In this document: piece after piece, positions 7,825 to 49,681 of the stretch
Layout of the letters: each line of letters starts with the position of its first letter
Position numbering within the stretch: the first letter of the stretch is position 1
NCBI GenBank assembly: GCA_963422735.1
Contig: OY730476.1
Coordinates: 2,912,001-2,976,000 of the forward strand
Origin: Candidatus Latescibacterota bacterium
GTDB lineage: Bacteria; Latescibacterota; UBA2968; UBA8231
Direction of reading: 5' to 3'
Length of the DNA: 64,000 nt
Notes under the pieces: generated by a model
Seen by the model: only the letters and a program-made list of their open reading frames with translations
What the model was told of the DNA's origin: nothing
Databases searched by the model: none
Made by a program: the position numbers and the translations under genes

Positions 7825-7834
7825 GCTTGAGATC

Positions 7835-8356: not shown

Positions 8357-8362
8357 GGCGGC

Positions 8363-8737
8363 TCAGTCGCACTCGGCCTTGGCGTCTTTATCTTTACTCT
8401 TGCGGACGAACTTCTTTATTTTGCCGATGGCCTCGGGCACTAGCCCGATGATCTGACTCCAACCGGCCTCCTGATCGCCGATGGACGCCACCTGCACCTT
8501 GCCGTCGGCATCGACGATGAGGAAGGCGATGGGTTCAATGTTCGCGCCGCCGCCCGTCCCGCTCTGCCCCTTGCCCTCCAGCCCTCCGCCGGCACCAAAG
8601 CCAAACGATATTTTCGATACCGGAATAATGGTCAAGTCGCCGGACTGAAACGGCTGCCCGATGACGGTTTCGGTTTGCACGATGCGGTGCAACTCGCCTA
8701 GGACGCGCTCCACTAGGGATTCTACAGACGATGCCAT
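8363..8737 (-). CDS. YtfJ/GerW family protein
   Basis: TVIGQP..GDLTIIPVSKISFGFGAGG...GGGANIEPIAFL signature. Confidence 0.88.
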   Translation of the reverse strand: MASSVESLVERVLGELHRIVQTETVIGQPFQSGDLTIIPVSKISFGFGAGGGLEGKGQSGTGGGANIEPIAFLIVDADGKVQVASIGDQEAGWSQIIGLVPEAIGKIKKFVRKSKDKDAKAECD

Positions 8738-14048: not shown

Positions 14049-17000
14049 AGTAGCCCTTGACCGCGCGCGTGTTGTATTCCTGCAAATACTCTAGGTGCGC
14101 GCTGGTTTGCGGGTAGTGCTCGCGCACTGGGTACGGGTAGCCGGACATGCCGTGAAAGGGGAGCGGTCCGACCGTTAGCGAGTGCGCCGAGTGCAGGTCC
14201 ATATCTTTGCCAAAGCCATCGGCGTACAGCAGGAACGAGCGCACGAGACCAGCCGCGGGCGGCGGCAAGGCGGCGAATTCTACGGTCAGCTCGTCGCCGT
14301 GGAACATGATGACAAAGCGGTCATCAATGCCCTCGACCAGTTCTTCCACCGGGCCGAAGCGGGTGAAAGCCCCGCTGTGGGTACCCCAAGGCGCTTCTAA
14401 CTCCAATTGGTCGTAGTGGTAGCGAAAGGCAAAGGTGCCCTTGACAGCCGTGTGGGCCGGGTAGCCTCGCCAGTGGAGGTCGCTCCGCGCCGGTTGCCGG
14501 CGGTGGACCGCGAGGGGAATATCCGCAGCGTCGCCCACCAGAAATTGGTCCCAGTAGAGCGCAGTGTTGGTTTCGATCCGCAGCTGGTAATCGTCGGAGG
14601 GAAAAAGGCCCTTGAGATCGAATAGCGCGTGTTTGGGCAGGCCCGCCGGGCAACCCATATCCGCGCTGACTTCGACCCACCCCCCTTTGCCGTCGGCCAC
14701 CGACAGACGCGGCGGATACAGCGACAAGCCGCGCTGTGCGGCGCTCCAATTCGAGGTCGAATGCGCGTAATCGACCCAGCCATAGCCGAGCAAGACCGGA
14801 TGGGCAAATTCGGACAGGTCGCCCAAGCTCAGCTCTAGCGCATGGTCTTCGGCATAGCCGTGAATATCGAGCCGGTCAAACCCGTCGTACCACTCGTCGT
14901 CGATCTCTTGCAGGACGGCCAACACATCCGCGCCCCGGTGGTCGCGGGCGGCCACAGGCGGGCGCAGCCCCCGAAGGGGATATAGCTTGAATTCTGGATA
15001 GGGCGGCGCAGAGAGCAGACGCTCGTTGGGATATACGTCGAACTCGGGCGGATGATCGACGGCGATCAGTTCGAGGGCATCGACGTAAATGACTTCTTCT
15101 AGCTGATTGGCTAGCTGCAAGACATAGCGGCCATCTTTGGGAGCCAGCGGCCCCAAGCGGACGTACTCGTCGGTGTCGGGCTGATAATACTGGCCCGGGG
15201 CGGTCAAATAGCCAATAATGGCCCCCCCGAGAATGTCGGTGACAAAGCGATAGCGCTCGCCGTCCCAAGCGTAGAGGATGGGGCACGAGGTGCCCTTGCG
15301 GTCGAGTTCTGTCAGCTCCAGCCTCTGTCCGGCCCCGGTGGCCAACTCGGTCTGACGCACGCCCCCGGGCCAAAGGATGCGAATGAATTCGACCGAGTCG
15401 CTCTGCGCCAAGCCAAAGTGGAGCACACCCGCGTATCCCTCGCTGCGGATCTCGCGCTTCTGGAGACGGTGGGTGGTTTTCACCTCCACCTTGGCCCCGA
15501 CGCCGTCGCGGTTGCTGTTAAGCCCTTGGGCGGCGATCTCAATATAGTGCCCCCCCTCGCTTTGGTTGTGCAGGACCCGGCCACCTGTCCAAATATCCAC
15601 GCGGCCGTCGCCGTTGAAATCGGCCATGAGCGCAACCCCACCCGGCTCGTCGAGCAAAGGTTGCGGCTGGAACTGGCCGCTGCCGTACGCGAGCGGTTGC
15701 AGGTGCTCGTCCCCACAGGCGAGTAGGTCGAGGTCGCCGTCGTTGTCGAGATCGGCGGGAAGCAGTGCCCGCCCACCGGAGGCAACCGGTGTCTCGGCCC
15801 GGACGAAGGCGCGGCCGGCTCGGTTGACATGCGTCTCTATAGTGCCGCTGGCCGCGATAGCCAAGTCCATATAGCCATCTTGGTTGAAGTCCTCGACGGC
15901 CAAGCCCGCGCCCTGCACTGCGCCCAAACCCAAAGCGGCGGCGATTTCCGAGAACGTGCCGTCGCGATTGTTGGTATGGACTTGCAGGCCCTCGGCCGAT
16001 AGGAGGACCATATCTACGTCGCGGTCGTTGTCGAGGTCGGAAAATGCAGCGAGATCGGCCGCGACCGGACCGGCTGGTTGGCCCGTGGCGGCGAAACGGG
16101 CCTCCCCGTCGTTGGCTAGCAGCGAGACGCTCGGGCCGAGCACTAGCAGATCGAGGTCGCCGTCGTGGTCGGCATCGCCCAGCGCGATACCGGTCGAGGC
16201 CACGGACAGATCCTCTCCGGCGGCCCATTCTCCATTAGCCGCTCGGTAGAGCAGAGTTCCGCCCGCTCCACTGAGGACCAAGTCGGCGGCCCCGTCGTTA
16301 TCGAGGTCGCCGGAGATCGCGCCAATCGCCCCAAAGCCGTCGGGTACCGTCGGAGCAGTGAGCACTTCCGCTGTGCTGCCAGCATACAGGTGCAAGCCCT
16401 CGGCCCCGGCCAAGACATCCGGCCGGCCATCCGCGTCAAAGTCGCCCAAGGCGGCAAAGCGCACCGGGCCGGTCGCCGGGCCATCCGCAGCGAATGCAAA
16501 AGGCCCAGCCACGTCGTCCTGACTCGGATCGCCGCCACCGGCGTCGGCGACGGCCTCGGCGTACTTGCCCTGCCCCTGATAGGACGAAGAAACGCCTTGG
16601 TGGCCGGCTTGGCTGAGCTTGTTGAAGTGCTCCAAGGTGCTTTTCCACTCCTCCTCGCGCCCGAGCCGCCGGTAGAGATTGGCCAGCCCATAGTACGCCG
16701 ACACGTTGTAGGGATCGAGGCGGATGGCCTCCTCAAAGTCGGCGATAGCGGCCTCGCCCTCGTTTAGCTTAGTCCGCGTTTGCCCCATGTAGTAGCGCAC
16801 ATGGGGGTCGTCGCGGTCGGCGGCTGCCACTTTTTGCAAGGCGGCGAGTGCTTTGTCGTGCTCCCGGCCTTGGGCATTGTAGATCAGGCCCAGCGCGTAG
16901 TTGGCGTGGAGAAGATCGGGGTCGATGGCAAGGGCGGTTTGCAGGGCCGTGGCGGCGCTGTCGTACTTGCCGAGGGCATAGTACGCAATGCCTAGATTGG

Positions 17001-17229
17001 CCCGTGCATTAGCGTAATCCGGGGCCAAGGCGAGGGCGAGGGCAAATTCCTCTCGGCCACGCGTGTAGTTGTGTTGATCCATATAAACCACGCCCTGATT
17101 GTTGTGCCAGCGCGCCTTGGGAGGCCGAGCCGGCGATCCCTCGGGCAGCCCCTGCTGACAGGCCATTCCCAAGAGGGTCACGGAGAGAAACAACAGCACT
17201 TGACGCACCTTGACGCTTGTACGGGGCAT
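14041..17229 (-). CDS. Lipoprotein with TPR repeats, FG-GAP propeller, ASPIC/UnbV domain and a large C-terminal domain
   Basis: LLGMAC lipobox; TPR helices; repeated DxDxDGxxD; SNRDGVGAKV...LHFGL...WPGG; SCPILYAWDG domain; start placed at ATG 17229 because the longer ORF runs antisense through the tRNA. Confidence 0.88.
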   Translation of the reverse strand: MPRTSVKVRQVLLFLSVTLLGMACQQGLPEGSPARPPKARWHNNQGVVYMDQHNYTRGREEFALALALAPDYANARANLGIAYYALGKYDSAATALQTALAIDPDLLHANYALGLIYNAQGREHDKALAALQKVAAADRDDPHVRYYMGQTRTKLNEGEAAIADFEEAIRLDPYNVSAYYGLANLYRRLGREEEWKSTLEHFNKLSQAGHQGVSSSYQGQGKYAEAVADAGGGDPSQDDVAGPFAFAADGPATGPVRFAALGDFDADGRPDVLAGAEGLHLYAGSTAEVLTAPTVPDGFGAIGAISGDLDNDGAADLVLSGAGGTLLYRAANGEWAAGEDLSVASTGIALGDADHDGDLDLLVLGPSVSLLANDGEARFAATGQPAGPVAADLAAFSDLDNDRDVDMVLLSAEGLQVHTNNRDGTFSEIAAALGLGAVQGAGLAVEDFNQDGYMDLAIAASGTIETHVNRAGRAFVRAETPVASGGRALLPADLDNDGDLDLLACGDEHLQPLAYGSGQFQPQPLLDEPGGVALMADFNGDGRVDIWTGGRVLHNQSEGGHYIEIAAQGLNSNRDGVGAKVEVKTTHRLQKREIRSEGYAGVLHFGLAQSDSVEFIRILWPGGVRQTELATGAGQRLELTELDRKGTSCPILYAWDGERYRFVTDILGGAIIGYLTAPGQYYQPDTDEYVRLGPLAPKDGRYVLQLANQLEEVIYVDALELIAVDHPPEFDVYPNERLLSAPPYPEFKLYPLRGLRPPVAARDHRGADVLAVLQEIDDEWYDGFDRLDIHGYAEDHALELSLGDLSEFAHPVLLGYGWVDYAHSTSNWSAAQRGLSLYPPRLSVADGKGGWVEVSADMGCPAGLPKHALFDLKGLFPSDDYQLRIETNTALYWDQFLVGDAADIPLAVHRRQPARSDLHWRGYPAHTAVKGTFAFRYHYDQLELEAPWGTHSGAFTRFGPVEELVEGIDDRFVIMFHGDELTVEFAALPPPAAGLVRSFLLYADGFGKDMDLHSAHSLTVGPLPFHGMSGYPYPVREHYPQTSAHLEYLQEYNTRAVKGYYE

Positions 17230-17238
17230 GGTTATATT
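17210..17238 (+). promoter_or_regulatory. Sigma70-type promoter for tRNA-Gly
   Basis: TTGACG-17 bp-TATATT, 30 bp upstream of the tRNA. Confidence 0.65.
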
Positions 17239-17268
17239 TTTTCTCCTTCCATAGCGATCAATTTTTGA

Positions 17269-17344
17269 GCGAGAGTAGCTCAGTTGGTAGAGCTCCACGT
17301 TGCCAACGTGGTTGTCGCGGGTTCGAGTCCCGTCTCTCGCTCCA
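17269..17344 (+). tRNA. tRNA-Gly (GCC)
   Basis: GCGAGAG/CTCTCGC acceptor stem, AGCTCAGTTGGTAGAGC D arm, TTGCCAA anticodon loop, GGTTCGAGTCC T arm, encoded CCA; 76 nt. Confidence 0.98.
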
Positions 17345-17445
17345 TTTTTTTGCCTCAACCTCCATTTCAATAATAATAGCTAAAACCCCCATTGAGAAAA
17401 GGCTGACCCAGTCTTGAGTCGGGTCGAGTTATAGGGAATCCACGC

Positions 17446-18592
17446 TCAATTTCCAGAGGGATATGAGGTGCCACCCGCCGGGCCGGCAAAGCACTGGCCA
17501 AGACGGAACAAATCGCCCGGTGGGTTTTTGCGGTCCTCCAGGGAGTCGGCTATAACCGGTCCAATGGAGCCGCCGAATTTAAATCCGTGGCCGCTGCCAC
17601 AGCCGGCGATGAGAATCCCCCGCGCCATCGGGGCCCAGTCGATGACGAAGTGGTCGTCGGGCGTATTGGTGTACAGGCAGGCGCGGCCCCCCACCAGTCG
17701 GGCCCTTCCAAAACGGGCAGGTGCTGGGCGACAAAGGTGCGGGCTTGGTCGAGGAAGCTGGGGCTGGGTTGGCGCTCGGCCTCGGGCTCGGTGCACTCTA
17801 CTTTGCTGTCCTCGGCGATTTTGACGTACCCTTCGCGCAGCAGCGGGAAGCCGTACCAAGCCTCCTCGGGACTCAGCACTGTCCACACGGGAAACACCTT
17901 CTGGGCGAACGTTTCGGGCTCGGCCGGGGCCAAGAAGGCCATTTGCTGGCGCATTATGCACAGGTGGTCCTTTAGAGTGGGAAAAAGGCCACCACCCAAG
18001 CACCGGCGGCAACCACGACGCGGTCGAATAGAGGGCGCTCTGGCCCTGTGGCTAGGCGGATACCCCGGTCGGTCTCGGCCATGGCCTGCACAGGGGTGTG
18101 GGAGCGGATATCAACTCCTTGGTCCCGGGCCAGATCGGCCACGGCCTGACCGCTGCGCAAATAGCCGGACCAAGGATCGTAAAAGAGCGTGTCGTCGTCC
18201 TGCACGGCAAATTGGGGAAAGCATTGGCGGACCTGAGCCGGGCTCAGCACTTTGACCGCCTTCCTCCGCTGGCCCAGCGTCTATAGGCCGCGGCGATCCG
18301 GGCTGTCAGTGGGCAAATCGCCCCAGATATTGAGCTTGCCGGTCTGGTAATAGATGGCCCGGCTGAGCCGGTCGTGCCACCGGCACCACTAGTGCGCGGC
18401 CCGCTCGACCAGTTCGTGGTAGGTCTCCTCGGGGTAGCTGGTGCGGCGGATGACTTTGGACACATCGGTCGAGGAGGCATCCGGACAGGGGATGGGGCCG
18501 CGTTCAAAGAGGGTGACTTGGTGGCCCCGCCGGTTGAGTTCCAAGGCCGCGGCCAAGCCGAAAATGCCCGCTCCTACAATGCCGATGCGCAT
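17446..18592 (-). pseudogene. FAD-dependent oxidoreductase (sarcosine oxidase/fructosyl amino acid oxidase-like), disrupted
   Basis: GIVGAGIFG, SSTDVSKVIR, VAAGAW, CLYTNTPDDHFVID and GSGHGFKFG are spread over several frames; in-frame TAG at 18389-18391. Confidence 0.85.
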
Positions 18593-18786
18593 GGCTTCGT
18601 CTTCATTGCCTGCAAGGCCACGTGGATGTATCCGAAGGATGGCAAATCAGACTCGTTAATCGGCCTCAGAGACCGCCAGAGGATGAAGGTCAATCGGTCC
18701 TCCTCTACACGTCGGAGATAGCCGCCTAACGTTTTGTTGAACCGAGAATCCCTAGATCAAGACGACCAACGCGCCCAAACAGCTTC

Positions 18787-21174
18787 TCAGGCCGTGCGGC
18801 GCTCGCGGATTTGCAGCAGGGCCGGCAGCAGGGTGACGGACGTGATGAAACAGAACCCTAAGCCCACCAGCGAGAGCACGCCTATCGACGTGAGCGCCGG
18901 ATGGATGGCCGGCACCAACCCCGAGAAGCCGACCATTGTCGTCAGCGACGTAGCCAACAGCGCGACCCCGGTCGTGCGCAACACCAATCGCAACGAGCCG
19001 CGACCGACTTCTTGGTAGCGGTGGAAGATGTGGACGCTATTGTCAACGCCCATGCCGATGATCGTCGGAAAGGCGACCATGTTGTAGAGATTGAGCTTGA
19101 TGTCAAACGCATACATGGAGCCCACGACCCACACCAACGCGTTCAAAAGCGGCGTGAGCACCAGCAGAGTATCGACGAAGCTCCGCAGGTCAATGAGCAG
19201 CATCACCGCGACGACCGCGAGCGTGAGGATCACGGCGAGAGAGCTGTCTTCGAGCATGACCTTGAGCATCTCGGCGACGATGATGTGCGAGCTAGAGGCT
19301 ATGTAGGTCTTGCCCGTCGGCGTTTCAATGTGGCTGATTTCCTCGGCAAAGCGGATGGCGTCTTTTCCATCCTTGAGCTCGACCGCGGCGTTGATCGCCA
19401 CGAAGTTGAGGATGTTGCCTTCCTTGTCCTTGAACTCGTTGGTCAAGTCTGCGGGCAGGTCGTAGAGCGTTAGCTTCTCCACGTCGAGGTACGGGCGCAG
19501 CGAGTCCAGTTTAGCCCGCTCGCTCTCGCTGAACAGGCCCTCTTCCCGGTCGAGCAAGTCGCGGATATCGGCGATAAGCGCCAGCTTGGCGTCTTGGGCT
19601 TGCGGGAGCGCGGAGTACACGCTCTTGACGCTGAGGACTGTAGAGGAGTCGCCGCGGGCGGCCTTGATGCGCTCGACCGTGCGAACCACCTCCATGGCCT
19701 CGTCGTAGCTTTCGGTCAGGACGATGGCCGGCGAGCGACCTTCCTTCAGGCTCTGGGGCAAGCTGCCCTTGTTCATGTTGGGCGGCGGCGCGGGCTTGAG
19801 CTTGCTGAAGTCGTATTCAAATTCCAAATCGCCGAGGTGGTACAGCGAGTACCCGGTGACCATAGCGCCTATCAGCAAGGTAGCCCAAGGCATTGGGTAG
19901 CGACCTGTGCGCCAGAGGACGCTTCTCTTGCGGATCGGGATGACCAACCGCAGGCGCTCGGCGAGGACGATGAAGGCCGGGCATATAGCGACCATGGCCA
20001 CCAGCGAAAAGAGGATGCCGGTGCCCACGATAAAGCCGAACTCCGAGAAGCCCTTAAAATCCGTCAACAGCAGCGAATAGAAGGCAACCGAGGTAGTAAA
20101 CGCCGTCGTCGTAAGGGCCTTGCCCGTGTGCCGGACGGTCACGGTCAGGGCCTGTTCGATGTCCATGCCTCGGCGTCGGGCCTCGCGGTAGCGGGCGAAG
20201 ATGTGAATGCCAAAGTCGATGCCCAGCCCAAAGAGAATGGCGAAAAGCCCTACGGTGATCATGTTGAGACTGCCGATGGCCAAGTAGGTGACGCCAAAAG
20301 TCCAAGTCAGGCTCATCAGCAGCGGCAAGGTGATAAAGAGCGAGCCAATCACTTGGCGGAAGAATAGTGTGATGAGCAGGAGTACGCCGACGGTGCTGTA
20401 CAAGGCCGTTGACTTGAGGTCTTGCACAATGATCGTGAATTGATTGGCGCTGTTGTGGAAACTGCCCTTGTACACGCATTCGATGCTGGGGTGGAAGCGC
20501 TCCGGGGCAATGGCGGCAATGGTCTGGTCGAGATGGTCGATCAAGGCCTGTGAGAAGGCGACATCCGTGGTAAGCCCGGCCGGATAGAGCCGGAGGATGA
20601 CGCCGTTGCCCTCTCGCGTAATGACGTACTGGCGGTATTGCTCTGCGACCACCGCACCGTCCTGCTGGTACTTGGCCTCGATATCCGAAAAGTCAAGAAC
20701 CTGCTCTTCCTCGTCGTCAAAGGCGAAGAAGAGCGGCGACTGCTTGAGCTTCTGTAGCTCTATGTGCTCGTCGAGGCGGCGGTTGATTTCCCGCAAGTCC
20801 CCTAAGTCCATGTAGAGAAGCTGATTTTTATCGAGGAGATCCTTTTTGCTGTCGAGGCGGCTCACCGAGCTAATAAGCGGGCTGTGTTCGAGCGAATCGG
20901 CCAAGACCAGCATGAAGGAAACGGCCGCGTCCAAATCGTCGCTGGTAATGACGACCATCAGCGGGCCGATGCCGCCGATGCGGGACTTGATGCGATTGAG
21001 TTCCCTGACGCTGACGTATTCGTCGGACAGGAGGTCGGCGAAATCGGTCTTGATGTTTTCGGCCAGCTTGGCGGCGAAAAACCCGGCAAATACCGACAGG
21101 ATCGTGGCCAGCGCGATTATGCCGATGTAGTGGTGGTAGATGTAGCGGACCAAGCGCTGGTGGCTTATGGGCAT
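18787..21174 (-). CDS. MMPL/HpnN-type RND transporter
   Basis: Two-fold internal repeat with GLGIDFGIH and GMGVDNSVH TM4/TM10-type motifs; two periplasmic loops; about 12 TM segments. Confidence 0.9.
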   Translation of the reverse strand: MPISHQRLVRYIYHHYIGIIALATILSVFAGFFAAKLAENIKTDFADLLSDEYVSVRELNRIKSRIGGIGPLMVVITSDDLDAAVSFMLVLADSLEHSPLISSVSRLDSKKDLLDKNQLLYMDLGDLREINRRLDEHIELQKLKQSPLFFAFDDEEEQVLDFSDIEAKYQQDGAVVAEQYRQYVITREGNGVILRLYPAGLTTDVAFSQALIDHLDQTIAAIAPERFHPSIECVYKGSFHNSANQFTIIVQDLKSTALYSTVGVLLLITLFFRQVIGSLFITLPLLMSLTWTFGVTYLAIGSLNMITVGLFAILFGLGIDFGIHIFARYREARRRGMDIEQALTVTVRHTGKALTTTAFTTSVAFYSLLLTDFKGFSEFGFIVGTGILFSLVAMVAICPAFIVLAERLRLVIPIRKRSVLWRTGRYPMPWATLLIGAMVTGYSLYHLGDLEFEYDFSKLKPAPPPNMNKGSLPQSLKEGRSPAIVLTESYDEAMEVVRTVERIKAARGDSSTVLSVKSVYSALPQAQDAKLALIADIRDLLDREEGLFSESERAKLDSLRPYLDVEKLTLYDLPADLTNEFKDKEGNILNFVAINAAVELKDGKDAIRFAEEISHIETPTGKTYIASSSHIIVAEMLKVMLEDSSLAVILTLAVVAVMLLIDLRSFVDTLLVLTPLLNALVWVVGSMYAFDIKLNLYNMVAFPTIIGMGVDNSVHIFHRYQEVGRGSLRLVLRTTGVALLATSLTTMVGFSGLVPAIHPALTSIGVLSLVGLGFCFITSVTLLPALLQIRERRTA

Positions 21175-21183
21175 GGCGGAGGG

Positions 21184-21819
21184 TTAATCCCGGGTTGCAC
21201 CGCCTGAAGGCGGCGAGAGAATCGCTTCGCGCAGGCGGGCCAATTGCTTGTCGAGCTGGGCGATGAGCTTCCCGTAGCCATTTTTCTCGATGTAGCGGGC
21301 ATAGCGCCGCCTGTTGCCCTCAGCGGTGCTGACGCCGTCGATGACCAAGTCGTATATCCGCCACAAACCCTCCACCCGATGGAGCTTGTATTCGATCTCT
21401 ATTTGCTCATCCCGCACGGGTGCCAGCGCTTGGACGATGGCTGCGTCTCCTTGCACCTCGGCCGACTCGTAGCGGATCTCGCCCTCGCGATAGTAGCGAG
21501 AGAAGCTGGAGAAATTCTGCTCGCGAATGATGCTGCTGAAGGTCTCGGCGAAGTGATCGCGCTCGGCCGGGGAGCGCTCTTCCCAGTGATCACCCAAGGC
21601 GAGTCGGCTCAATTCCCGGAAGTCGAAGGCCGCGTTGATGTGCTTCTTGATCTCTTCCCGCACGGCCGCAAGCAGCGAGTCGGCTGGCGCTTCGGCGAGG
21701 ATGGCCTGCACCTCGGCGTCGTGGTCCTTGAGGAAGGCGATGGGATCGTCCTCTGCAGCCGCGCTGGCAGCCGTCGCGGCGCAGAGAGCAGCCCACGCGG
21801 CGCACCATACCATTTTCAT
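21184..21819 (-). CDS. MlaC/Ttg2D/HpnM-family periplasmic lipid-binding protein
   Basis: Signal peptide; FDFRELSRLALGDHW...ERDHFAETF; WRIYDLVIDGVS. Confidence 0.88.
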   Translation of the reverse strand: MKMVWCAAWAALCAATAASAAAEDDPIAFLKDHDAEVQAILAEAPADSLLAAVREEIKKHINAAFDFRELSRLALGDHWEERSPAERDHFAETFSSIIREQNFSSFSRYYREGEIRYESAEVQGDAAIVQALAPVRDEQIEIEYKLHRVEGLWRIYDLVIDGVSTAEGNRRRYARYIEKNGYGKLIAQLDKQLARLREAILSPPSGGATRD

Positions 21820-23096
21820 TGTGCCTTCTCCTCTGCGTACGCGCCGTTGGAGACGGGAAGTCCACCGCAGTGGTTGATGACGCGCCCATCGTCAAAGGCT
21901 TGGCGCGTCCAGACTCGTAGGTCTGCGTAGTACGCTTCGGCGTACGAACCGGTCGAGTTGGCGTCTGTGAGCAGCCCCAAGCCGATGGTGCGCTCGGCCG
22001 GCTGACCGCCGAGTTTTTCGCGGTGGTGCTTCTCCAAGTCAACGACCTCAAAGGTCCATTTGCCCAAGTTGGTCGAGCCGCTTTCGACGACGAAGAACCA
22101 AGGCCGGAAGATCTTGTCGCGCCGCCCCACCGTGCCTTCGGGCAAGGTTGTGCTCCACACGTATTTGAGCTGTTTGGGGACCCCCAGCCAATTCTTGGAG
22201 AAGATGACGTACACGCCGGCCGCGCTGTCGTTGGCGTCGTCGAGGAACTCGTTGCCGCCCAGCGGCAAAGCCGCGGCCCGCCAGCACCAAGTCATAATCG
22301 GGTACTGGCGGGGATTCCAGTGGACGAATTTTCCCACGATAACCGAATGGCTCGAATCGCGCGCCGCCATGTAGCGCCGAGGGCGGCCCTCTACGCGGTA
22401 GAGCACGGGTTTGCGGCGGTCTTTTTTTTTCCAAGGTCCCCAGTCCATGGGCTGCGACCCGTCCCAAGTGGCGGCGAAGTCCTCGAGGACGACGAACTCG
22501 CGCTCGGCGAGGTGGGCCTCCATCACCGGCGGCGAATGGCGGCTGTCGATCAGCGACTGGTAGCGACGTCGATAGTAGCTGGAGACGGGCTGGCCGCCGA
22601 TCTTCAACTCGGCGATTTTCCAAGTTCCGGCTGCAAGAATCAAGTCGGCCTCCACGCCGAGCGAGCGAGTGGCAAATAACGCGCGAAGCTGCGCACGGCC
22701 CCGCCGACCATTCACTTCGAGGCTATCCAAGCGCAAGCCGCGCAAGTCCGGGGAAGTAAGCTGGGCGGCCAAGTCGGCACTGAGGCGATGCTGGTAGGCC
22801 CTAGCCAGTCGGCTGCGATAGTGCTCGACGAGGTGTGTAAAACGCGGGATGGATAGCAGGCTCCGGTATGAGTTCAGCGACTTTTCGGGATAGTCGCCAA
22901 AGGTCGTCGCGGCAAATTCCTCCAAGGCCAAGTGCTCGCTCACTAAGCGTTCAGCCGCGCCGGCGCTCTCGCGGTTAGGGGCCTCTAGCAGCGCGTTCAG
23001 CCGCGCCACGGCCCCCGTCGCCCAAGCCGCGTCGGCTCCGCTGTCGCCCGGGCCGACCAAGGCCAGTAGCAGAGCCGCGCTAAGGAAACGTTTCAT
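21816..23096 (-). CDS. Secreted fusion: MlaC-like N-terminal domain plus DUF3047 C-terminal domain
   Basis: WKIAELKIGGQPVSSYYRRRYQSLI parallels the MlaC C-terminus; YPIMTWCWR, DSAAGVYVIF, LKYVWS and GLLTDANST match DUF3047. Confidence 0.75.
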   Translation of the reverse strand: MKRFLSAALLLALVGPGDSGADAAWATGAVARLNALLEAPNRESAGAAERLVSEHLALEEFAATTFGDYPEKSLNSYRSLLSIPRFTHLVEHYRSRLARAYQHRLSADLAAQLTSPDLRGLRLDSLEVNGRRGRAQLRALFATRSLGVEADLILAAGTWKIAELKIGGQPVSSYYRRRYQSLIDSRHSPPVMEAHLAEREFVVLEDFAATWDGSQPMDWGPWKKKDRRKPVLYRVEGRPRRYMAARDSSHSVIVGKFVHWNPRQYPIMTWCWRAAALPLGGNEFLDDANDSAAGVYVIFSKNWLGVPKQLKYVWSTTLPEGTVGRRDKIFRPWFFVVESGSTNLGKWTFEVVDLEKHHREKLGGQPAERTIGLGLLTDANSTGSYAEAYYADLRVWTRQAFDDGRVINHCGGLPVSNGAYAEEKAQ

Positions 23097-24447
23097 CGCG
23101 TGGGATTAGTTCGAGACCGCCCGTGGCTTTTTCGAGGCGGGCGACGCTGATGTTAAAGTCGTAAAGGGTTTCGCCGTAGCCTTGTTCGCGGCGGGCCCAA
23201 GCCTCAAAGGCGGCGATCAATTCGCCGATGGTCTGCGGGTCGAACTCAAAATCGTCTCGGGCTTCCCGCAGCCACTGCCGGGCCAATTGCCGGCTCTTGC
23301 GCGCGTCTTGCAAATCGCGGTCGGCGCGGCGATAGTCCAAATAGGCGCGGTGGACATCTAAGCGGAGCCCCTCCTGCACACCCGGTACGCGCGCTTCGAG
23401 TGCGCGGTATTCAGCGCGGGCCCTATCTACATCCGCTGCCAACAAGTGCCATTCCAAGGATTGCTGCACTCCGATGAAGACGCCGCCGTTAAAAAAATTG
23501 AACTCATCTTTGACAAATGGGTTCCGCTGGTCGGTGCGCCCAGGGGCCACGGCGTAGCGCAAGCCACCGCCGATGAACACTTGGGGCTGGTACGCGGCGC
23601 GGGCAGCTTGCGCGAGGGCCTGTTTGGCGGCGAGGCCCGCTTGCAGCTTGCGCCATTCCGGTCGCCGGCCGACGGCCTGTGCGACTAGCGCGTCTAAGGG
23701 CGGGATCGAGGCCGCCACCGGCGCGAGTCGCTCGGCCCGGAGCAGGAGCGGCCCATCGCTAGGCAGGCCCGTGCGCCAAGCCAGCGCAGCCCGCGCCAAG
23801 GCCAATTGGTCGCCGACCTCGCGCTGCTGCTTGGCCAAGTCGAGCTGGGCCAGCCGCAGCCTGTAGTGGTCGGACGGCGAGAGCGCGGGATCGTCGTCTA
23901 GTTCCTCGGCCCTGCTGGCTAGCTCATCGCTCACGCGCAGCACCAAGGCGTTTAGATCTTGTGCCAACAGCAGTCCGTAGTACAGTTCCTTGACGGCAAA
24001 GGACACGTCCAACTGGGTCTGCAACAGGTCGGACTGCTCCACATTGACCCCCCAAGTGGCGGCTTCGTCTAAATGGCGGCCGAGGCTAAAGGGATAGAGC
24101 GGCTGCACAAATTGCAGCTCGGCGCGCACAAAAGGCCCCAAGGATGGGATGCCCGTGGTATCGGCGGGCGGGCTGAACACACTGCCCATAGCGTCTGGGA
24201 CTATGCCGCTTTCGCTGTCGATGCGCAGGCGGGGAAGGATCTTGGCGGCCGCAGCTTGGCGGCGACGGGCCGCGGCCGACTCGACCTTCCAACGGCCGCT
24301 CGCAACATCGCCATCGCGCTCCAAGGCGCGGTCGATAAGCTCAGGTAGCGTCCAGCGTTTGTCGGGCATTTGGGCGCGGGCCGGGGGGGTGGGCAAGCAG
24401 ATGGCGAGGCCCCAAACCCCTAGCCACAAGGGGGCGCAAATTTGCAT
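23080..24447 (-). CDS. TolC family outer-membrane efflux protein
   Basis: Signal peptide; two OEP repeats (LPRL...QPLY; YQPQV...VQQSL); VKELYYGLL; C-terminal ARLEKATG. Confidence 0.88.
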   Translation of the reverse strand: MQICAPLWLGVWGLAICLPTPPARAQMPDKRWTLPELIDRALERDGDVASGRWKVESAAARRRQAAAAKILPRLRIDSESGIVPDAMGSVFSPPADTTGIPSLGPFVRAELQFVQPLYPFSLGRHLDEAATWGVNVEQSDLLQTQLDVSFAVKELYYGLLLAQDLNALVLRVSDELASRAEELDDDPALSPSDHYRLRLAQLDLAKQQREVGDQLALARAALAWRTGLPSDGPLLLRAERLAPVAASIPPLDALVAQAVGRRPEWRKLQAGLAAKQALAQAARAAYQPQVFIGGGLRYAVAPGRTDQRNPFVKDEFNFFNGGVFIGVQQSLEWHLLAADVDRARAEYRALEARVPGVQEGLRLDVHRAYLDYRRADRDLQDARKSRQLARQWLREARDDFEFDPQTIGELIAAFEAWARREQGYGETLYDFNISVARLEKATGGLELIPRDETFP

Positions 24448-24514
24448 GCCAGTGGGAAATCTCAGTGGCGGAAGAGGCGGAATTCGCGGTGACAGTGCAG
24501 GTCCGTCATTTTTA

Positions 24515-24567
24515 TAACTTGTTAAAAATAGTTAAGTTAATATACAGACTAAGCGATTTATCGTCAA
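24515..24567 (-). promoter_or_regulatory. Promoter and operator-like inverted repeat for the TolC-MlaC-MMPL operon
   Basis: Minus strand TTGACG-17 bp-TATATT (24567-24539); TAACT-N10-AGTTA inverted repeat at 24515-24534 overlapping the predicted +1. Confidence 0.6.
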
Positions 24568-24662: not shown

Positions 24663-27422
24663 ATGCAGCCGACTTTAGTCGTCCGGGAAGCCTGCGAACA
24701 TAACCTGCGCGCCGTCTCCTTAGACCTGCCCCACGAATCCCTTGTGGCCGTCAGCGGTCCGTCCGGGTCGGGCAAAACTTCCCTCGTATTAGACACGATT
24801 TACGCCGAGGCGCGCCGGCGCTTTCTCGCGGCGCTGGACCAGGGCGGCGGCTGGCGCACATTGCGCGTACCCAAAGCCAGCCGCATTGACGGCTTGGCCC
24901 CCGCACTCGCACTAGCCGGGGGAGTCGGCCACCAGAGTCCGCGGGCCACGGTGGCGACTCTGTCCGGCTTGTACGATCTGTTACGCCTGCTCTTTGCCCG
25001 CGTCGGTCGGCCCAGTTGCCTTCACTGCGGCGGGCGGGTGCAGACGCATCGCTTTGAAGAGGCAAACGAAGCGGCTGCGAGCATGCCGGCCGGAACCCGC
25101 CTGATGGTTCTCGCACCGCGCCGGCGGCGGGAGGACGAGACGCCCGAGCAGATACTCGCCGCGATTGATCGCGCCGGTTACCGCCATGTGCGCCTCGACG
25201 GACAAGACCTGCTACTGGAGGAAATCGCGCCCGAGCGCGTCGCCCGCGCTCAGCACTTGTCCGTGGTCGTCGATCGCCTCGTCGTCAAAAAGGGCATCAC
25301 GCGCCGCTTGCAAGGGTCGCTGCAAGCGGCCTTGGAGGCGGGCGACGGCCAAGTGGTGCTTTCCACCCCAGACGCAGGCAGCGATCTAGTTTTTGCAGTG
25401 CGACCAGCGTGCGCGGCCTGTGGCGCGCCCTTCCCGGCCCTAGAATCCGCGCTGTTTTCCTTTAATAGCGCGGCCGGAGCCTGCGCGGCGTGCCGGGGCC
25501 TCGGAGTGCAGCGCGGCTTGAGCAGCGAGCAGGTCTTCTCTAGTGGACGGGCTACGCTCGAAGGGGCACTCGGTCCCCTGTGGCACGACTTTGGGCACGG
25601 CGATTTGCGCGACCGCTTGCAAGCCTTCTGTCGGCGGCACCAAGTCTATCCTGAACAACCCGTGGGAGACTGGCCGGGCCAAGCGGCCGAACGGCTGTGG
25701 CGCGGCGAGGGCCGGCGGGGCCGGTTTCTCGGGATGGCGCACTGGCTGGAGCGCGTCGGCGCCAAAGCCGAAGGAGAGGAATTGGCTTGGCTGGAGGAAC
25801 GCCTCGACGACGCGCCATGCCCTAGCTGCAGTGGGGCGCGCTTGCGGCCCGAATCCCTCGCGGTAGAATTGGGCGGGGCGTCGATTGCCGCGGTCGGCGA
25901 GTGCGCGGTCGTCGCGGCGGCCGAGTGGCTCGGGAGTCTCGATTTCCCCGCGGCTATAGCCCCTGTAGGTGAGGCCATCCGCGCCCAGATTAGCCGCAGG
26001 CTGACCCTGTTGCAAGAACTGGGGCTGGAGTACCTGCAACTGAACCGCCGCGCCGACACCCTGTCGAGTGGGGAGTTTCAACGGCTCCGCCTCGGGTCCG
26101 CCCTGTCGTCGGGCACCACGCAGATGCTCTATGTGCTCGACGAACCCAGCACCGGTTTGCACGCGCGCGACGCTGCCCAGCTCTTGGACGCGCTCAGGGG
26201 ACTGCGCGACGCTGGGAACTCCGTGTTCCTAATAGAACACGACGCGGCCCTTTTGCGCGGGGCCGACTGGCTGGTCGATATGGGGCCGGGCGCGGGGATC
26301 GCCGGCGGGCAAATCGCGGCCGAGGGCACGCCGAGCGAGGTGGCAGCGGCCGGGTCTTTGACCGGACGCTATCTGCGCGGGGCACTGCAATTGCCGCGCA
26401 CCCGAGCGCGCCAGCCACAGGGGTGGTTGGTATTATCCGGTGCCCGCGGCCACAACTTGCGCCAACTCGAAGTGAAATGGCCGTTGGGGACCTTGACTTG
26501 CGTGACCGGGGTTTCCGGGTCGGGCAAAAGCTCGCTGGTCAGCCACACCCTGCATCCGCTCTTGGCGGCCAAACTGCACAGCGCCCAGCGGCGACCCCTG
26601 CCCTATAGTTCTTGCGCTGGAATCGAACAGGTGGCGCGCGTCGTCGCGGTTGATCAGCGGCCCATCGGCCGCACCGCGCGCTCAAATGCAGCGACCTACA
26701 CCGGGTTGCTAGCACCGATTCGCCGCCTGTTCGCCGACCTGTCCGAAGCCCGCCTACGGGGCTACCGGCCGGCGCACTTTAGCTTCAACGCTCCAGAGGG
26801 AGCCTGCGACCTGTGCAAGGGCCGGGGGACGCACAGCATGCGCCGGAGCACCTTCGACGATCTCGAAGTCGTCTGCCCCTCTTGCAGCGGCCGGCGCTAC
26901 CGGGCCGAGGTCTTGGACGTGTGTTTCCGCCAGCACCACATCGCCGGAGTGCTGGAGATGAGCGTGGCCGCGGCGAGTGCGCTTTTTGCGGCCGTGCCCC
27001 AAGTCGCGCAGCGGCTAGAGACCCTCGCGGAAGTGGGCTTGGGGTATTTGCACCTCGGCCAGCCGGCGACCAGTTTTTCCGGCGGAGAGGCACAGCGGGT
27101 TAAGCTGGCGGCCGAACTGGGCCGCTCGCGCCAAGATCACGCGCTCTACATACTCGACGAACCGACCGCGGGCCTGCACTTGGAGGATGTGCGCTTGCTG
27201 CTCGCGCTCTTGCAGCGCTTAGTTGACGAAGGCAATACCGTAGTGGTGGTTGAACACCACATCGAATTCATAGCGGCCGCCGACTGGGTTATCGACTTGG
27301 GGCCAGAAGGCGGACAAGCCGGTGGGGCGATCGCGGCTTGCGGCCGCCCCGAGGAAGTGGCCGGCGCGGCCGGCTCCCACACGGGTGCATACTTGCAGCA
27401 GTTGTTTGCCGCGCAGGGTTGA
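24663..27422 (+). CDS. uvrA: Excinuclease ABC subunit A (divergent UvrA)
   Basis: Two ABC ATPase modules (GPSGSGKTS, LSSGE, VLDEP; GVSGSGKSS, FSGGEAQRVKLA, ILDEPT) and six CxxC zinc motifs. Confidence 0.88.
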   Translation: MQPTLVVREACEHNLRAVSLDLPHESLVAVSGPSGSGKTSLVLDTIYAEARRRFLAALDQGGGWRTLRVPKASRIDGLAPALALAGGVGHQSPRATVATLSGLYDLLRLLFARVGRPSCLHCGGRVQTHRFEEANEAAASMPAGTRLMVLAPRRRREDETPEQILAAIDRAGYRHVRLDGQDLLLEEIAPERVARAQHLSVVVDRLVVKKGITRRLQGSLQAALEAGDGQVVLSTPDAGSDLVFAVRPACAACGAPFPALESALFSFNSAAGACAACRGLGVQRGLSSEQVFSSGRATLEGALGPLWHDFGHGDLRDRLQAFCRRHQVYPEQPVGDWPGQAAERLWRGEGRRGRFLGMAHWLERVGAKAEGEELAWLEERLDDAPCPSCSGARLRPESLAVELGGASIAAVGECAVVAAAEWLGSLDFPAAIAPVGEAIRAQISRRLTLLQELGLEYLQLNRRADTLSSGEFQRLRLGSALSSGTTQMLYVLDEPSTGLHARDAAQLLDALRGLRDAGNSVFLIEHDAALLRGADWLVDMGPGAGIAGGQIAAEGTPSEVAAAGSLTGRYLRGALQLPRTRARQPQGWLVLSGARGHNLRQLEVKWPLGTLTCVTGVSGSGKSSLVSHTLHPLLAAKLHSAQRRPLPYSSCAGIEQVARVVAVDQRPIGRTARSNAATYTGLLAPIRRLFADLSEARLRGYRPAHFSFNAPEGACDLCKGRGTHSMRRSTFDDLEVVCPSCSGRRYRAEVLDVCFRQHHIAGVLEMSVAAASALFAAVPQVAQRLETLAEVGLGYLHLGQPATSFSGGEAQRVKLAAELGRSRQDHALYILDEPTAGLHLEDVRLLLALLQRLVDEGNTVVVVEHHIEFIAAADWVIDLGPEGGQAGGAIAACGRPEEVAGAAGSHTGAYLQQLFAAQG

Positions 27423-49526: not shown

Positions 49527-49681
49527 AAGCTCGCTCCTTGTCATCGGTTATAATAATAGAATAGACTTTTGTCGGGGCGGCAATGGACATTCGTAGCAAG
49601 AAGGTCGCTTGACAGTGAAAGGGTGGTCGTGGAATTTGGAGCCGGTGTAGAGCGAATGCTACTTTTTTTGGGGACCGGCGG

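Follow-up and report, generated by a model that had tools for sequence, protein, structure and literature searches.

The window that we analyzed is a stretch of 64,000 nucleotides from the genome of a Candidatus Latescibacterota bacterium. At positions 18787-24447 of its minus strand, the ORF listing contains four genes, which encode a TolC-like protein (OEP family), a fusion of an MlaC-like domain and DUF3047, an MlaC/HpnM-like protein, and an MMPL/HpnN-like RND transporter (Table 1). An earlier note on this DNA described the genes as co-oriented and tightly packed, and the listing agrees: adjacent ORFs overlap by 17 bp and by 4 bp, and the last pair is separated by 9 bp. Pfam returned the same four families that the note had named (OEP, DUF3047, MlaC, and MMPL). 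The note also placed the genes behind a TTGACG-17-TATATT promoter. The motif is present, in the 215 bp gap between the TolC-like gene and the divergent uvrA, and it agrees with the consensus at 10 of 12 positions. But a promoter scan of the region gave 3 such sites, as compared to 1.3 +/- 1.1 in shuffled sequences, so we regard the motif as a consensus match that does not prove a promoter. Metatranscriptome contigs from relatives, 90-95% alike and drawn from 3 runs of 2 studies, cover parts of all four genes, and two contigs span the TolC/fusion and pump/MlaC junctions. It is possible that the block is transcribed in these relatives. A caveat is that DNA carry-over is also possible, and a two-gene contig does not prove a single transcript.

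Table 1. Features of the four-gene block, in window positions.
Feature	Position	Strand	Basis or remark
Promoter-like TTGACG-17-TATATT	24539..24567	-	5' of TolC-like gene; consensus match only
P0001, TolC-family outer-membrane factor, 455 aa, signal peptide	23080..24447	-	Pfam OEP, E = 2.2e-23
P0002, secreted two-domain protein, MlaC-like + DUF3047, 426 aa	21816..23096	-	Pfam, BLASTP, orthologues, AF2
P0002 N-terminal domain, about residues 23-196, MlaC/Ttg2D-type fold	22509..23030	-	AF2, Foldseek, BLASTP
P0002 C-terminal domain, about residues 200-415, DUF3047	21852..22499	-	PF11249, E = 3.9e-21; fold matches
P0003, secreted MlaC/HpnM-like putative lipid carrier, 211 aa	21184..21819	-	PF05494, E = 2.5e-29
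P0004, HAE3/MMPL RND transporter, HpnN-like, 795 aa	18787..21174	-	PF03176, E = 9.8e-35

P0001 has two OEP repeats (PF02321 matches in two stretches, with 83.5 bits against a threshold of 22). Its alignment to TIGR01844 covers residues 33-446 and scores 41.9 bits, under the cut-off of 225. A sequence search for solved structures gave no relative of P0001. To our knowledge, no lateral gate for lipids has been described in TolC barrels. The earlier note reported that an AcrA-type adaptor is missing, and this was borne out. Neither the ORF listing nor Pfam has an adaptor gene within the block. The nearest match in a genome-wide search for the HlyD_D23 adaptor family lies some 61 kb from the block and is part of a different, complete RND/adaptor/OMF cluster. 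Similarly, in roughly 120 loci, tblastn maps and spot Pfam checks gave no adaptor between or beside the four genes.

P0003 belongs to the MlaC family (PF05494, 102.6 bits; gathering score 26), and its relatives among MlaC structures in the PDB reach E = 4e-12. Its best curated match is HpnM rather than MlaC (77.5 vs. 28.4 bits), but this is under the HpnM cut-off (160.1 for TIGR03481). The N-terminal domain of P0002 has zero Pfam matches by itself, while its predicted fold resembles MlaC/Ttg2D. (The AlphaFold2 model of P0002 has a pLDDT of 87.8. The best PDB matches are MlaC/Ttg2D structures: in Foldseek, the N-terminal domain matches 11if with E = 1.4e-7, as well as 5uwb and 6hsy, and it matches 5uwa with E = 1e-5.) This domain is also similar to the neighboring P0003 (E = 1e-5 by BLASTP). 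PF05494 is found in 22 of 120 orthologues of P0002 among those listed, and in 106 of 120 fusion orthologues of a more distant clade (see below). Both carriers are predicted to be secreted, soluble proteins with Sec-type signal peptides; lipoboxes occur in just 1/26 sequences of the MlaC set and 1/42 of the fusion set.

The other domain of P0002 is DUF3047 (PF11249 at residues 219-393, 75.9 bits; gathering score 27), a family that comprises over a thousand sequence clusters. A free DUF3047 paralogue in the same genome scores 110 bits against the same gathering score. The domain is a concanavalin/CBM-like beta-sandwich, and its fold matches include carbohydrate-binding modules, GH16, GH11, and GH12 enzymes, the sandwich domain of a C5-epimerase, and calreticulin. 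Invariant acidic and polar residues are retained in DUF3047, and for this reason the domain may be enzymatic and not a binding module.

P0004 is an MMPL protein (PF03176, 120.5 bits vs. 20.5), and its best solved relative is HpnN (6wu0, E = 1.2e-33). Its scores are under the cut-offs for HpnN (299.6 vs. 751.85 bits for TIGR03480 and 199.7 vs. 1100 for NF052374) and for the HAE3 model TIGR00921 (202.4 vs. 351.9). Matches to BstA (165.9 bits vs. 1400 for NF045600), MmpL4/5, and MmpL3 are weak. The paired GxGxD...H motifs in TM4 and TM10 are retained and are invariant in 26 orthologues (residues D320, H324, D711, N712, and H715). The earlier note suggested that the pump and a MlaC-fold protein exchange cargo. 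In complex predictions, the pump and MlaC scored 0.55, as compared to 0.01 for the best of 3 controls, which counts as weak support. Of 157 solved complexes, 116 attained this mark, as did 2 of 215 mismatched pairs, but passing scores at or below 0.60 comprise only 18 of the 157 solved complexes plus both of those mismatches. Contact agreement between runs was at least 95%, and the pLDDT of the partners was at least 76.

We then asked how widely the block is conserved. All four genes are present in 23 of 24 close loci (the remaining locus is cut by the end of the contig) and in 10/10 from other genera of the same GTDB family. The trio of TolC, MlaC, and MMPL is complete in all 23 close loci that could be assessed. 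It is also complete in 11 of the 16 genomes sampled across the phylum and in 28 of the 39 metagenome loci that could be assessed, so the block that the earlier note proposed to survey is kept. In a second clade, at 30-40% identity, the same four genes are reordered, with fusion-TolC-MlaC and the pump upstream or downstream (loci L112-L122). Overall, the block occurs in Latescibacterota and in MAGs labelled as KSB1, Calditrichaeota, and Gemmatimonadota. Given how many loci share it, the arrangement is well beyond what chance would give. The parts of the block are not obligatory, as some relatives lack the pump (L038, L108-110) and others lack TolC and MlaC (L041, L042).

Outside the window's own genus, we found that the block has further neighbors, namely a HpnL-like flippase-type gene and a CDP-alcohol phosphotransferase. 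The HpnL-like gene is immediately 5' of TolC in 12/12 phylum-genome loci and in 23/32 metagenome loci. (Seven of the nine metagenome loci without it are of the type of the window's own genus.) The phosphotransferase lies within 2.5 kb 5' of TolC in 10 of 12 phylum-genome loci and 17 of 26 metagenome loci. It is of the inositol-phosphate type and is accompanied by a cytidylyltransferase and, in some lineages, by a radical-SAM enzyme or a GT4 glycosyltransferase. In the window's own genome, the CDP-alcohol phosphotransferase, HpnL-like, free DUF3047, and GT4 genes form one tight row (C1:1118879-1123116), which stands 1.8 Mb from the four-gene block; the same row is found in 7 metagenome loci. 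Thus, the four genes of the earlier note do belong together, but they are only half of the conserved unit.

For these neighbors, all scores against the HpnL and IPCT/DIPPS models are under the curated cut-offs. HpnL (TIGR03476) is the best match for 5/5 flippase-type partner proteins, at 134-155 bits, which is under the cut-off of 195.65; all five pass the flippase-like domain model TIGR00374. For the partner transferases, the best NCBIfam matches are all inositol-phosphate enzymes: IPCT/DIPPS, archaetidylinositol-phosphate synthase, PIP synthase, and BT1523. Scores for the IPCT/DIPPS model (NF041135) are 90.8 bits in the window's own genome, 92.5 in L025, and 236 in L117, as compared to a cut-off of 580. 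The bifunctional IPCT/DIPPS architecture is found only in L117-type enzymes, and the fused enzyme of L117 aligns to an IPCT/DIPPS (PDB:4mnd) over its full length (E = 1.2e-53). In the transferase from the window's own genome, the transferase core aligns (E = 6e-19), and a short N-terminal region with no Pfam match replaces the cytidylyltransferase domain. The separate cytidylyltransferase of the family is closer to the phosphocholine cytidylyltransferase LicC (E = 3e-13) than to IPCT (E = 3e-4).

Myo-inositol-phosphate synthase (MIPS) is encoded in the window's own genome, apart from the block, as it is in 73 of the 75 other genomes from the family. In other families of the phylum, MIPS was found in 0/92 genomes, and some of these genomes have partial blocks with the transferase (L035, L041), so the inositol reading is not general. 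As for other lipids, the earlier note saw no hopanoid or sterol genes in the window, and we agree; furthermore, PF13243 (squalene-hopene cyclase) has no match in this genome, a single contig of 4.95 Mb that is 95% complete.

We consider it somewhat probable that Latescibacterota and allied candidate phyla share a conserved lipid module, of which the four genes form the envelope-transport half. This module would be a HpnL/M/N-type export system, dedicated to a phospho-alcohol lipid (possibly with inositol) and ending at the TolC-like protein. The lead on the cargo comes from the relatives, which add the HpnL-like flippase-type protein and the CDP-alcohol phosphotransferase. The phosphotransferase, together with the cytidylyltransferase, would act at the inner membrane to form a polar phospho-alcohol lipid, and the GT4 glycosyltransferase or radical-SAM enzyme would join in its synthesis in some lineages. 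The product may be an inositol-phosphate lipid, perhaps glycosylated. The HpnL-like protein would expose it on the periplasmic face, P0004 would extract it using the proton gradient, and the soluble P0003 would carry it across the periplasm. P0002, with a second MlaC-like pocket and the lectin-like DUF3047 sandwich, would receive or present the lipid at P0001. P0001 would be the outer-membrane terminus, in place of a MlaA-type lipoprotein and with no involvement of an AcrA-type adaptor. In the window's genus, the biosynthetic half would have moved 1.8 Mb away, with its own free DUF3047 paralogue. The gene content, the folds, the linkage, and the genome-wide absences are observations, and from these we infer a lipid as cargo, the direction of its transport, the sequence of hand-over steps, and what TolC and DUF3047 do. 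The core idea of the earlier note, an adaptor-less lipid route through MMPL, MlaC-fold, and TolC proteins, is supported by the linkage down to about 30-40% identity, the rearranged gene order, the secreted carriers, the kept GxGxD...H motifs, and the weak pass in the complex prediction.

We also considered four alternatives. First, a non-lipid or polymeric product could be exported through the TolC channel, although we think this rather unlikely. The product might be a solute similar to di-inositol-phosphate, a polyprenyl-linked chain (teichoic-acid-like or glycan), or a glycolipid surfactant that is secreted; DUF3047 would bind glycans or be a glycan-processing enzyme, and the MlaC-fold proteins would chaperone an amphiphilic intermediate. 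TolC is classically an exit duct, and the closest characterized transferase, IPCT/DIPPS (AF2299), yields a soluble solute (di-myo-inositol phosphate, in hyperthermophiles) and no lipid. DUF3047 shares its fold with carbohydrate-binding modules and GH16-type enzymes, and Wzx-like Polysacc_synt flippases and GT4 genes are near the block in some loci (L025, L041, L108). But the two MlaC-fold carriers and the HpnN/MmpL-type pump are from lipid-handling families, the HpnL-like partner is from a family associated with membrane lipids, and without an adaptor, the duct from pump to TolC would not be sealed.

Second, P0003 might be an ordinary MlaC that serves a MlaFED-type transporter, in either direction, for general phospholipid homeostasis, with the pump and TolC merely co-regulated and no dedicated cargo. 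P0003 is the sole Pfam MlaC match in the genome, MlaE and MlaD are encoded 1 Mb away (C1:3957580-3961736) with no adjoining MlaC, and MlaA was not found in a search of the genome. However, MlaFED systems without MlaC are common. Also, the block's MlaC gene accompanies the pump, TolC, and DUF3047 in almost all loci, along with head-group synthesis genes, and among the loci examined it never adjoins mlaE or mlaD. Given this, and that P0003 is closer to HpnM than to MlaC, we consider this explanation unlikely.

Third, we give little credence to a retrograde or salvage route, in which a lipid enters via the TolC-like protein from the outer membrane or from outside, the MlaC-fold carriers bring it inward, and the MMPL protein receives it. 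Sequence is neutral as to direction, and the Mla system of E. coli is generally regarded as retrograde (as summarized in bioRxiv 10.1101/2025.07.29.667474). Nevertheless, characterized HpnN/MmpL pumps export from the inner membrane, and the coupling to biosynthesis and to a flippase-type gene fits outward traffic. Finally, an ordinary tripartite drug-efflux pump with its adaptor encoded elsewhere is very improbable: the earlier note had raised orphan adaptors, and of ten adaptor-type matches in the genome (HlyD_D23), those at three places (near 0.336, 1.398, and 2.854 Mb) adjoin no RND match, but the nearest match belongs to another complete cluster, the operon itself includes two lipid carriers, tblastn maps and spot Pfam checks gave no adaptor in the roughly 120 loci, and P0004 is the genome's only short MMPL-type RND (HAE3/MMPL type), unlike its AcrB-like RNDs of 1050-1130 aa.

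How specific lipids are delivered to the outer membrane in two-membrane bacteria is still largely an open question, and few routes are known (Lpt, Lol, Mla, AsmA-like bridges, and the proposed HpnN route). With lipid export as the function, this locus would add a new architecture, in which a RND pump is combined with a pair of MlaC-type carriers and the route ends at a TolC-like protein, and would give DUF3047 its first functional context. It would also suggest that HpnL/M/N-like proteins are a general lipid-export cassette, beyond hopanoids, and would point to an uncharacterized lipid with a phospho-alcohol (possibly inositol) in several phyla about which little is known. Because the carriers are small, secreted, expressible, and loadable, the cargo question is directly testable. 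More speculatively, and we lean against so complete a picture, a TolC-family terminus without an adaptor might be fed by MlaC-fold carriers, with DUF3047 reading the head group, as part of a portable "L-M-N" cassette, together with HpnL-like and HpnN-like proteins, that evolution would have paired with more than one cargo. In Pseudomonadota the cargo would be hopanoids, while Latescibacterota, KSB1, Calditrichota, and Gemmatimonadota would use the cassette for an outer-membrane (glyco)lipid of the inositol-phosphate type.

How does the block compare to known systems? Like tripartite RND efflux pumps (AcrAB-TolC type), it has a RND transporter and an OEP-family outer-membrane factor in one operon, but there is no co-encoded membrane-fusion adaptor (HlyD_D23 search). 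The pump is of the MMPL/HAE3 type (795 aa), and periplasmic lipid carriers occupy the place of the adaptor gene. As in E. coli Mla (MlaFEDB - MlaC - MlaA/OmpF), a soluble MlaC-fold carrier would link a transporter in the inner membrane to a protein in the outer membrane. Here, however, the engine would be a proton-driven RND instead of the MlaFEDB ABC complex, a second carrier is present as a fusion to DUF3047, MlaE and MlaD are encoded 1 Mb away, and no MlaA was found. The BstABC sterol transporters and MmpL3-type exporters are of the same broad RND class and hand lipids to periplasmic proteins, but the folds of those partners differ from the carriers of the block, the BstA score is far under its cut-off, and we did not see sterol genes. 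The transferases resemble IPCT/DIPPS (AF2299, PDB:4mnd and 4o6m) over their full length (L117) or in the core (own genome), but the known enzyme makes di-myo-inositol phosphate, and the own-genome enzyme has no recognized cytidylyltransferase domain.

Another similar case, itself unconfirmed, is a gene cluster proposed for an alternative inositol lipid in Bacteroides vulgatus and Prevotella (Heaver et al. 2022, PMC9246714). As far as the cited sections of that paper describe it, this cluster shares with our loci a NTP transferase, a CDP-alcohol phosphatidyltransferase, and a gene annotated as lysyl-PG synthase-like, with MIPS in the genome, and these three kinds of genes flank the block in relatives. 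On the other hand, its HAD hydrolase is not seen here, MIPS is not adjacent here, and those sections do not describe TolC, MlaC, MMPL, or DUF3047 partners.

Another close parallel is the hopanoid-associated HpnN/HpnM(/HpnS, HpnL) system of Pseudomonadota. Each includes an inner-membrane RND of the HAE3 type along with a MlaC-like protein in the periplasm and a membrane protein of the flippase type, and a shuttle from HpnN to HpnM to an outer-membrane receiver was already proposed for hopanoids (HpnN/HpnM/HpnS; bioRxiv 10.1101/2025.07.29.667474). The earlier note called the system a candidate undescribed one, but the general idea of a RND with a MlaC-like shuttle is already published for hopanoids. 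HpnN, HpnM, and HpnL are the best curated matches here, but all three are under the family cut-offs, and the genome lacks squalene-hopene cyclase (PF13243 search). The outer-membrane partner is a TolC-family protein instead of the MlaA-like HpnS, and there is an additional MlaC-DUF3047 fusion. The block is found in Latescibacterota and in MAGs labelled as KSB1, Calditrichaeota, and Gemmatimonadota, and its linkage is with a CDP-alcohol phosphotransferase instead of hopanoid genes.

The four genes of the block encode a TolC/OEP protein (P0001), a fusion of an MlaC-like domain and DUF3047 (P0002), an MlaC/HpnM-like carrier (P0003), and an MMPL/HpnN-like RND pump (P0004). The earlier note had proposed that they form one transport system, and their order did prove to be conserved among close relatives. 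We found all four genes in the same order in 23 of the 24 closest loci, and the 24th is cut by the end of its contig. The same four genes were present in all 10 of the other genera that we sampled from the window's GTDB family, with identity of the fusion falling as low as 39%. Of 168 genomes from the phylum, 135 contain a match to P0002; in full length, the fusion is mainly restricted to the window's family (72 of 75 genomes) and one genus of another family (f3).

We also scanned metagenomes and mapped 80 loci with tblastn seeds. (The query was alignment A1; a second alignment, A2, was too diverse.) Counting only loci flanked by 1.5 kb or more on each side, TolC, MlaC, and MMPL are all present at 23/23 close loci, 11/16 phylum-genome loci, and 28/39 metagenome loci. 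The exceptions are of three kinds: TolC and MlaC without the pump (six metagenome loci, one genome locus), DUF3047 with the pump as its sole companion (two genome loci), and none of the three (five metagenome loci, two genome loci). Most of the metagenome loci of this last kind are the locus of a biosynthetic paralogue. At the lone DUF3047 loci L039, L040, L099, and L111, no partner genes were found. In a second clade (L112-L122; 30-40% identity), whose proteins are attributed by their sources to MAGs of KSB1, Calditrichaeota, and Gemmatimonadota, the order is fusion-TolC-MlaC, and the pump is upstream, downstream, or on the opposite strand. That the linkage outlasts this rearrangement is our strongest evidence that the four proteins work together. 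A large gene with TPR, FG-GAP, and UnbV_ASPIC domains, downstream of the pump gene, may also be a member of the conserved neighborhood: a similar gene follows the pump in locus L093, and TPR-type matches follow it in many further loci.

Coordinates of the block and of other features, in the window, elsewhere on the same contig (C1), or at related loci (L numbers)
Feature	Coordinates	Strand	Description
P0001	window 23080-24447	minus	TolC/OEP, Pfam E 2.2e-23; TIGR01844 aligned over 33-446, below cut-off
P0002	window 21816-23096	minus	DUF3047 at residues 219-393, Pfam E 3.9e-21
P0003	window 21184-21819	minus	MlaC, Pfam E 2.5e-29; top curated match HpnM, 77.5 bits (cut-off 160.1)
P0004	window 18787-21174	minus	MMPL, Pfam E 9.8e-35; top curated match HpnN, 299.6 bits (cut-off 751.85)
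Promoter-like TTGACG-17-TATATT	window 24567-24539	minus	consensus match only; in 215 bp spacer to divergent uvrA
uvrA	window 24663-27422	plus	TIGR00630, 886.8 bits; divergent from operon
TPR gene	window 14041-17370	minus	1109 aa; TPR + FG-GAP + UnbV_ASPIC
Similar gene after pump	L093:10752-14129
Short ORFs	window 17446-18756	minus	different frames; between pump gene and next large gene
ORF among these	window 17446-18012		last ~60 residues of sarcosine/N-methyltryptophan oxidases (NCBIfam E 2.9e-16; Pfam DAO E 7e-4)
Synthesis row	C1:1118879-1123116		CDP-alcohol phosphotransferase, flippase-type protein, free secreted DUF3047, GT4; tight row, 1.8 Mb from block
TolC-type pair	C1:384365-385645; C1:1926694-1927974		same E-value and bit score in the two genes, at each of the two OEP repeats
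Bifunctional transferase gene	L035:6352-7818		NTP-transferase/CDP-alcohol phosphotransferase
pILYOP01 genes	L127:901-3441 and 6818-7525		free DUF3047 gene and annotated mprF
PhyH ORFs	window 33625-35373; 48723-49544		phytanoyl-CoA dioxygenase
PhyH ORFs beside MIPS	L125:244-1248; 6865-7719; 7356-8492		phytanoyl-CoA dioxygenase

Profile scans and, for P0002, a structure prediction agree with all four of the labels that the note had assigned from the sequence, and the ORF calls give the tight packing that it described (overlaps of 17 and 4 bp, then a 9 bp gap). The N-terminal half of P0002 has no Pfam match of its own, so its label rests on other evidence: it aligns to P0003 (E = 1e-5); its orthologues carry PF05494 (22 of the 120 listed in one set, and 106 of 120 in the second clade); and the AlphaFold2 model of P0002 (pLDDT 87.8, pTM 0.88) has MlaC/Ttg2D as its top PDB matches (11if, E = 1.4e-7; 5uwa, E = 1e-5). 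P0004 also scores against other NCBIfam models (HAE3, 202.4; BstA, 165.9), and its nearest solved structure is HpnN (E = 1.2e-33). P0001 has no relative among solved structures by sequence. The promoter that the note saw is present, but as a consensus match only: the region has 3 such sites, versus 1.3 ± 1.1 in shuffled sequences.

P0003 and P0002, like the orthologues of each, carry Sec-type signal peptides, and a lipobox-like match is nearly absent (1 of 26 and 1 of 42 sequences), so both are probably soluble periplasmic proteins. In P0004, the paired motifs of TM4 and TM10 (D320, H324, D711, N712, and H715) are invariant in 26 orthologues, which fits a working proton-driven pump. For the pump-carrier pair, one of the complexes that the note proposed to predict, the outcome was graded "weak support": P0004 with mature P0003 scored 0.55, versus 0.01 for the best control. 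At least 95% of contacts recur between runs, and the partner's pLDDT is at least 76. In calibration, this mark was reached by 116 of the 157 solved complexes tried and by 2 of the 215 mismatched pairs; only 18 of the 157 reached it with a score of 0.60 or less, as did both of the mismatches that passed. These counts apply roughly here, because we used our own alignments.

Metatranscriptome contigs from relatives (90-95% alike) cover parts of all four genes (runs X17 and X18 are from one study and run X19 from another). One contig (22047-24198) crosses the TolC/fusion junction and another (21020-21555) crosses the pump/MlaC junction. These contigs indicate presence in an RNA library only, with DNA carry-over possible, and a single transcript is beyond their reach. 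We gave no weight to the several bins left uncovered in single runs, nor to one run that is RNA by guess only. Beyond the pump gene, the stretch before the next large gene has only short ORFs; the oxidase-like tail in one of them suggests that an FAD-oxidase gene has decayed here.

Judging from gene neighborhoods, the four genes make up half of a larger unit. Relatives have lipid head-group genes beside the block: an NTP-transferase and a CDP-alcohol phosphotransferase (fused or as two genes) and a flippase-type membrane protein (PF03706). Some lineages also have a radical-SAM(/SPASM) protein, a GT4 glycosyltransferase, or a Wzx-like protein there. At loci where TolC precedes the DUF3047 gene and the sequence extends far enough beyond TolC, the gene directly upstream of TolC is the flippase-type gene in 12/12 phylum-genome loci, 23/32 metagenome loci, and 0/22 close loci. 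(Of the nine metagenome exceptions, seven belong to the window's own genus type.) At 10/12 phylum-genome and 17/26 metagenome loci, a CDP-alcohol phosphotransferase gene is found within 2.5 kb. Where other genera have the HpnL-like and transferase genes, the window's genus has uvrA. The window's genome has these genes in a separate row (see the table), which is shared by seven metagenome loci, and most genomes of the genus have two DUF3047 matches. With a free DUF3047 in the synthesis row and a DUF3047 fusion in the block, this domain is the common thread of the two halves. In genome G061 (f3), a bifunctional transferase gene lies within the block, between the fusion and MlaC genes (L035).

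The free DUF3047 paralogue is predicted to be a beta-sandwich (pLDDT 91.7). Its top fold match is the sandwich domain of D-glucuronyl C5-epimerase (Z 14.3, rmsd 3.1 Å, 157 residues aligned), followed by CFAP20, calreticulin, many carbohydrate-binding modules, and GH16-type enzymes (Z about 10). The predicted fold takes the description no further than "lectin or glycanase-like". A comparison of 66 diverse members shows full conservation of one Glu, one Ser, and one Trp, and near-full conservation of several Asp and Trp; an enzymatic role is therefore possible. Conserved positions include Glu283, Asp290, Ser315, and Asp378. The family has 1142 clusters at E ≤ 1e-3, mostly free-standing proteins of 220-280 aa, and a full-text search for the term found no literature that gives it a function. 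Distant homologues (20-27% identity) are found on plasmids and chromids of Cupriavidus, Paraburkholderia, Ilyobacter, and others, where tblastn found no partner genes. On plasmid pILYOP01 of Ilyobacter polytropus, a free DUF3047 gene is 3.4 kb from mprF and adjoins exopolysaccharide genes, which is a further instance of DUF3047 near a flippase-type gene.

What might the head group be? Among curated models, each transferase scores best against an inositol-phosphate enzyme (IPCT/DIPPS, archaetidylinositol-phosphate synthase, PIP synthase, or BT1523), always below cut-off. The fused enzyme of locus L117 matches IPCT/DIPPS (4mnd) over its full length (E = 1.2e-53), the transferase of the window's genome matches AF2299 (E = 6e-19), and the second-best curated match of the GT4 is the inositol-phosphate glycosyltransferase MshA. 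A bona fide myo-inositol-phosphate synthase (MIPS) is present in the window's genome, where UppS and CdsA lie 2-4 kb away and the neighborhood has no transferase or carrier genes, and in 73 of 75 other genomes of its family. Two results weaken a general inositol reading. First, MIPS was found in 0 of 92 genomes of the phylum's other families, some of which have partial blocks; these include f3, the family of L035. Second, the family's separate cytidylyltransferase is nearer to the phosphocholine cytidylyltransferase LicC than to IPCT. Its best homologue in the window's genome was considered as a partner and rejected, as the sulfotransferase and sulfatase genes around it show no apparent link. 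The radical-SAM protein of L117, whose closest solved match is to the SPASM part of BtrN only (E = 4e-5), was not found in the window's genome. PhyH ORFs are unusually frequent, with two in the window and three beside the MIPS gene.

The best-supported model for the block is a cargo-dedicated outward lipid route. A lipid would be made at the inner membrane via the CDP-alcohol pathway and exposed by the HpnL-like protein; the HpnN-like pump would extract it; P0003 would carry it; and the MlaC-DUF3047 fusion would take it over at the TolC-like terminus. Gene content, folds, linkage, and genome-wide absences are direct results of the analysis. We infer that the cargo is a lipid, which way it travels, in what order it is handed over, and what part TolC plays.

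The window's genome is a single contig of 4.95 Mb (95% complete), and the records of its close relatives name them as MAGs of Candidatus Latescibacterota. There are several rivals to the model. The first is export of a non-lipid or polymeric product; the lectin- or glycanase-like DUF3047 would suit it, and carriers of the MlaC fold speak against it. The second is ordinary Mla-type homeostasis with a distant MlaFED: the genome has one MlaE and one MlaD, 1 Mb from the block, P0003 is its sole Pfam MlaC, and a whole-genome search found no MlaA. A retrograde route would reverse the direction of a system that has head-group synthesis genes beside it in relatives. Last is a conventional pump with a remote adaptor: there are seven OEP genes and ten HlyD_D23 adaptor-type places, the nearest of these being ~61 kb off within another complete RND/adaptor/OMF cluster, and P0004 is the sole short MMPL-type RND (the remaining RNDs are AcrB-like, 1050-1130 aa). 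A hopanoid or sterol cargo was rejected, as a whole-genome profile search found no squalene-hopene cyclase and every curated score is under cut-off. Two TolC-type genes elsewhere in the genome give identical matches, which suggests a duplicated segment in the genome or the assembly.

Searches of openly accessible full text found no paper describing this arrangement; neither MlaC, MMPL, and TolC together nor Latescibacteria with phosphatidylinositol led to one. An alternative inositol-lipid cluster of Bacteroides and Prevotella (itself unconfirmed) is alike in having an NTP transferase, a CDP-alcohol phosphatidyltransferase, and an "LPG synthase"-like gene, plus MIPS, as far as the accessible text of PMC9246714 describes it. 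A closer comparison is with the hopanoid system. The accessible text of a preprint (10.1101/2025.07.29.667474) gives transfer from an RND pump (HpnN) to an MlaC-like shuttle (HpnM) as a hypothesis, with the MlaA-like HpnS as the outer-membrane receiver, and states that HpnL's function is unknown. All five of the flippase-type proteins that we tested have HpnL (TIGR03476) as their top match, over the full length (134-155 bits, versus a cut-off of 195.65), and all five pass the flippase-like domain model. Nevertheless, the block and its partners fail all three of the curated thresholds for HpnL, HpnM, and HpnN, and the window's genome lacks hopanoid synthesis. Where the hopanoid model has HpnS, the block has a TolC-family protein, and it adds DUF3047 and a CDP-alcohol pathway.
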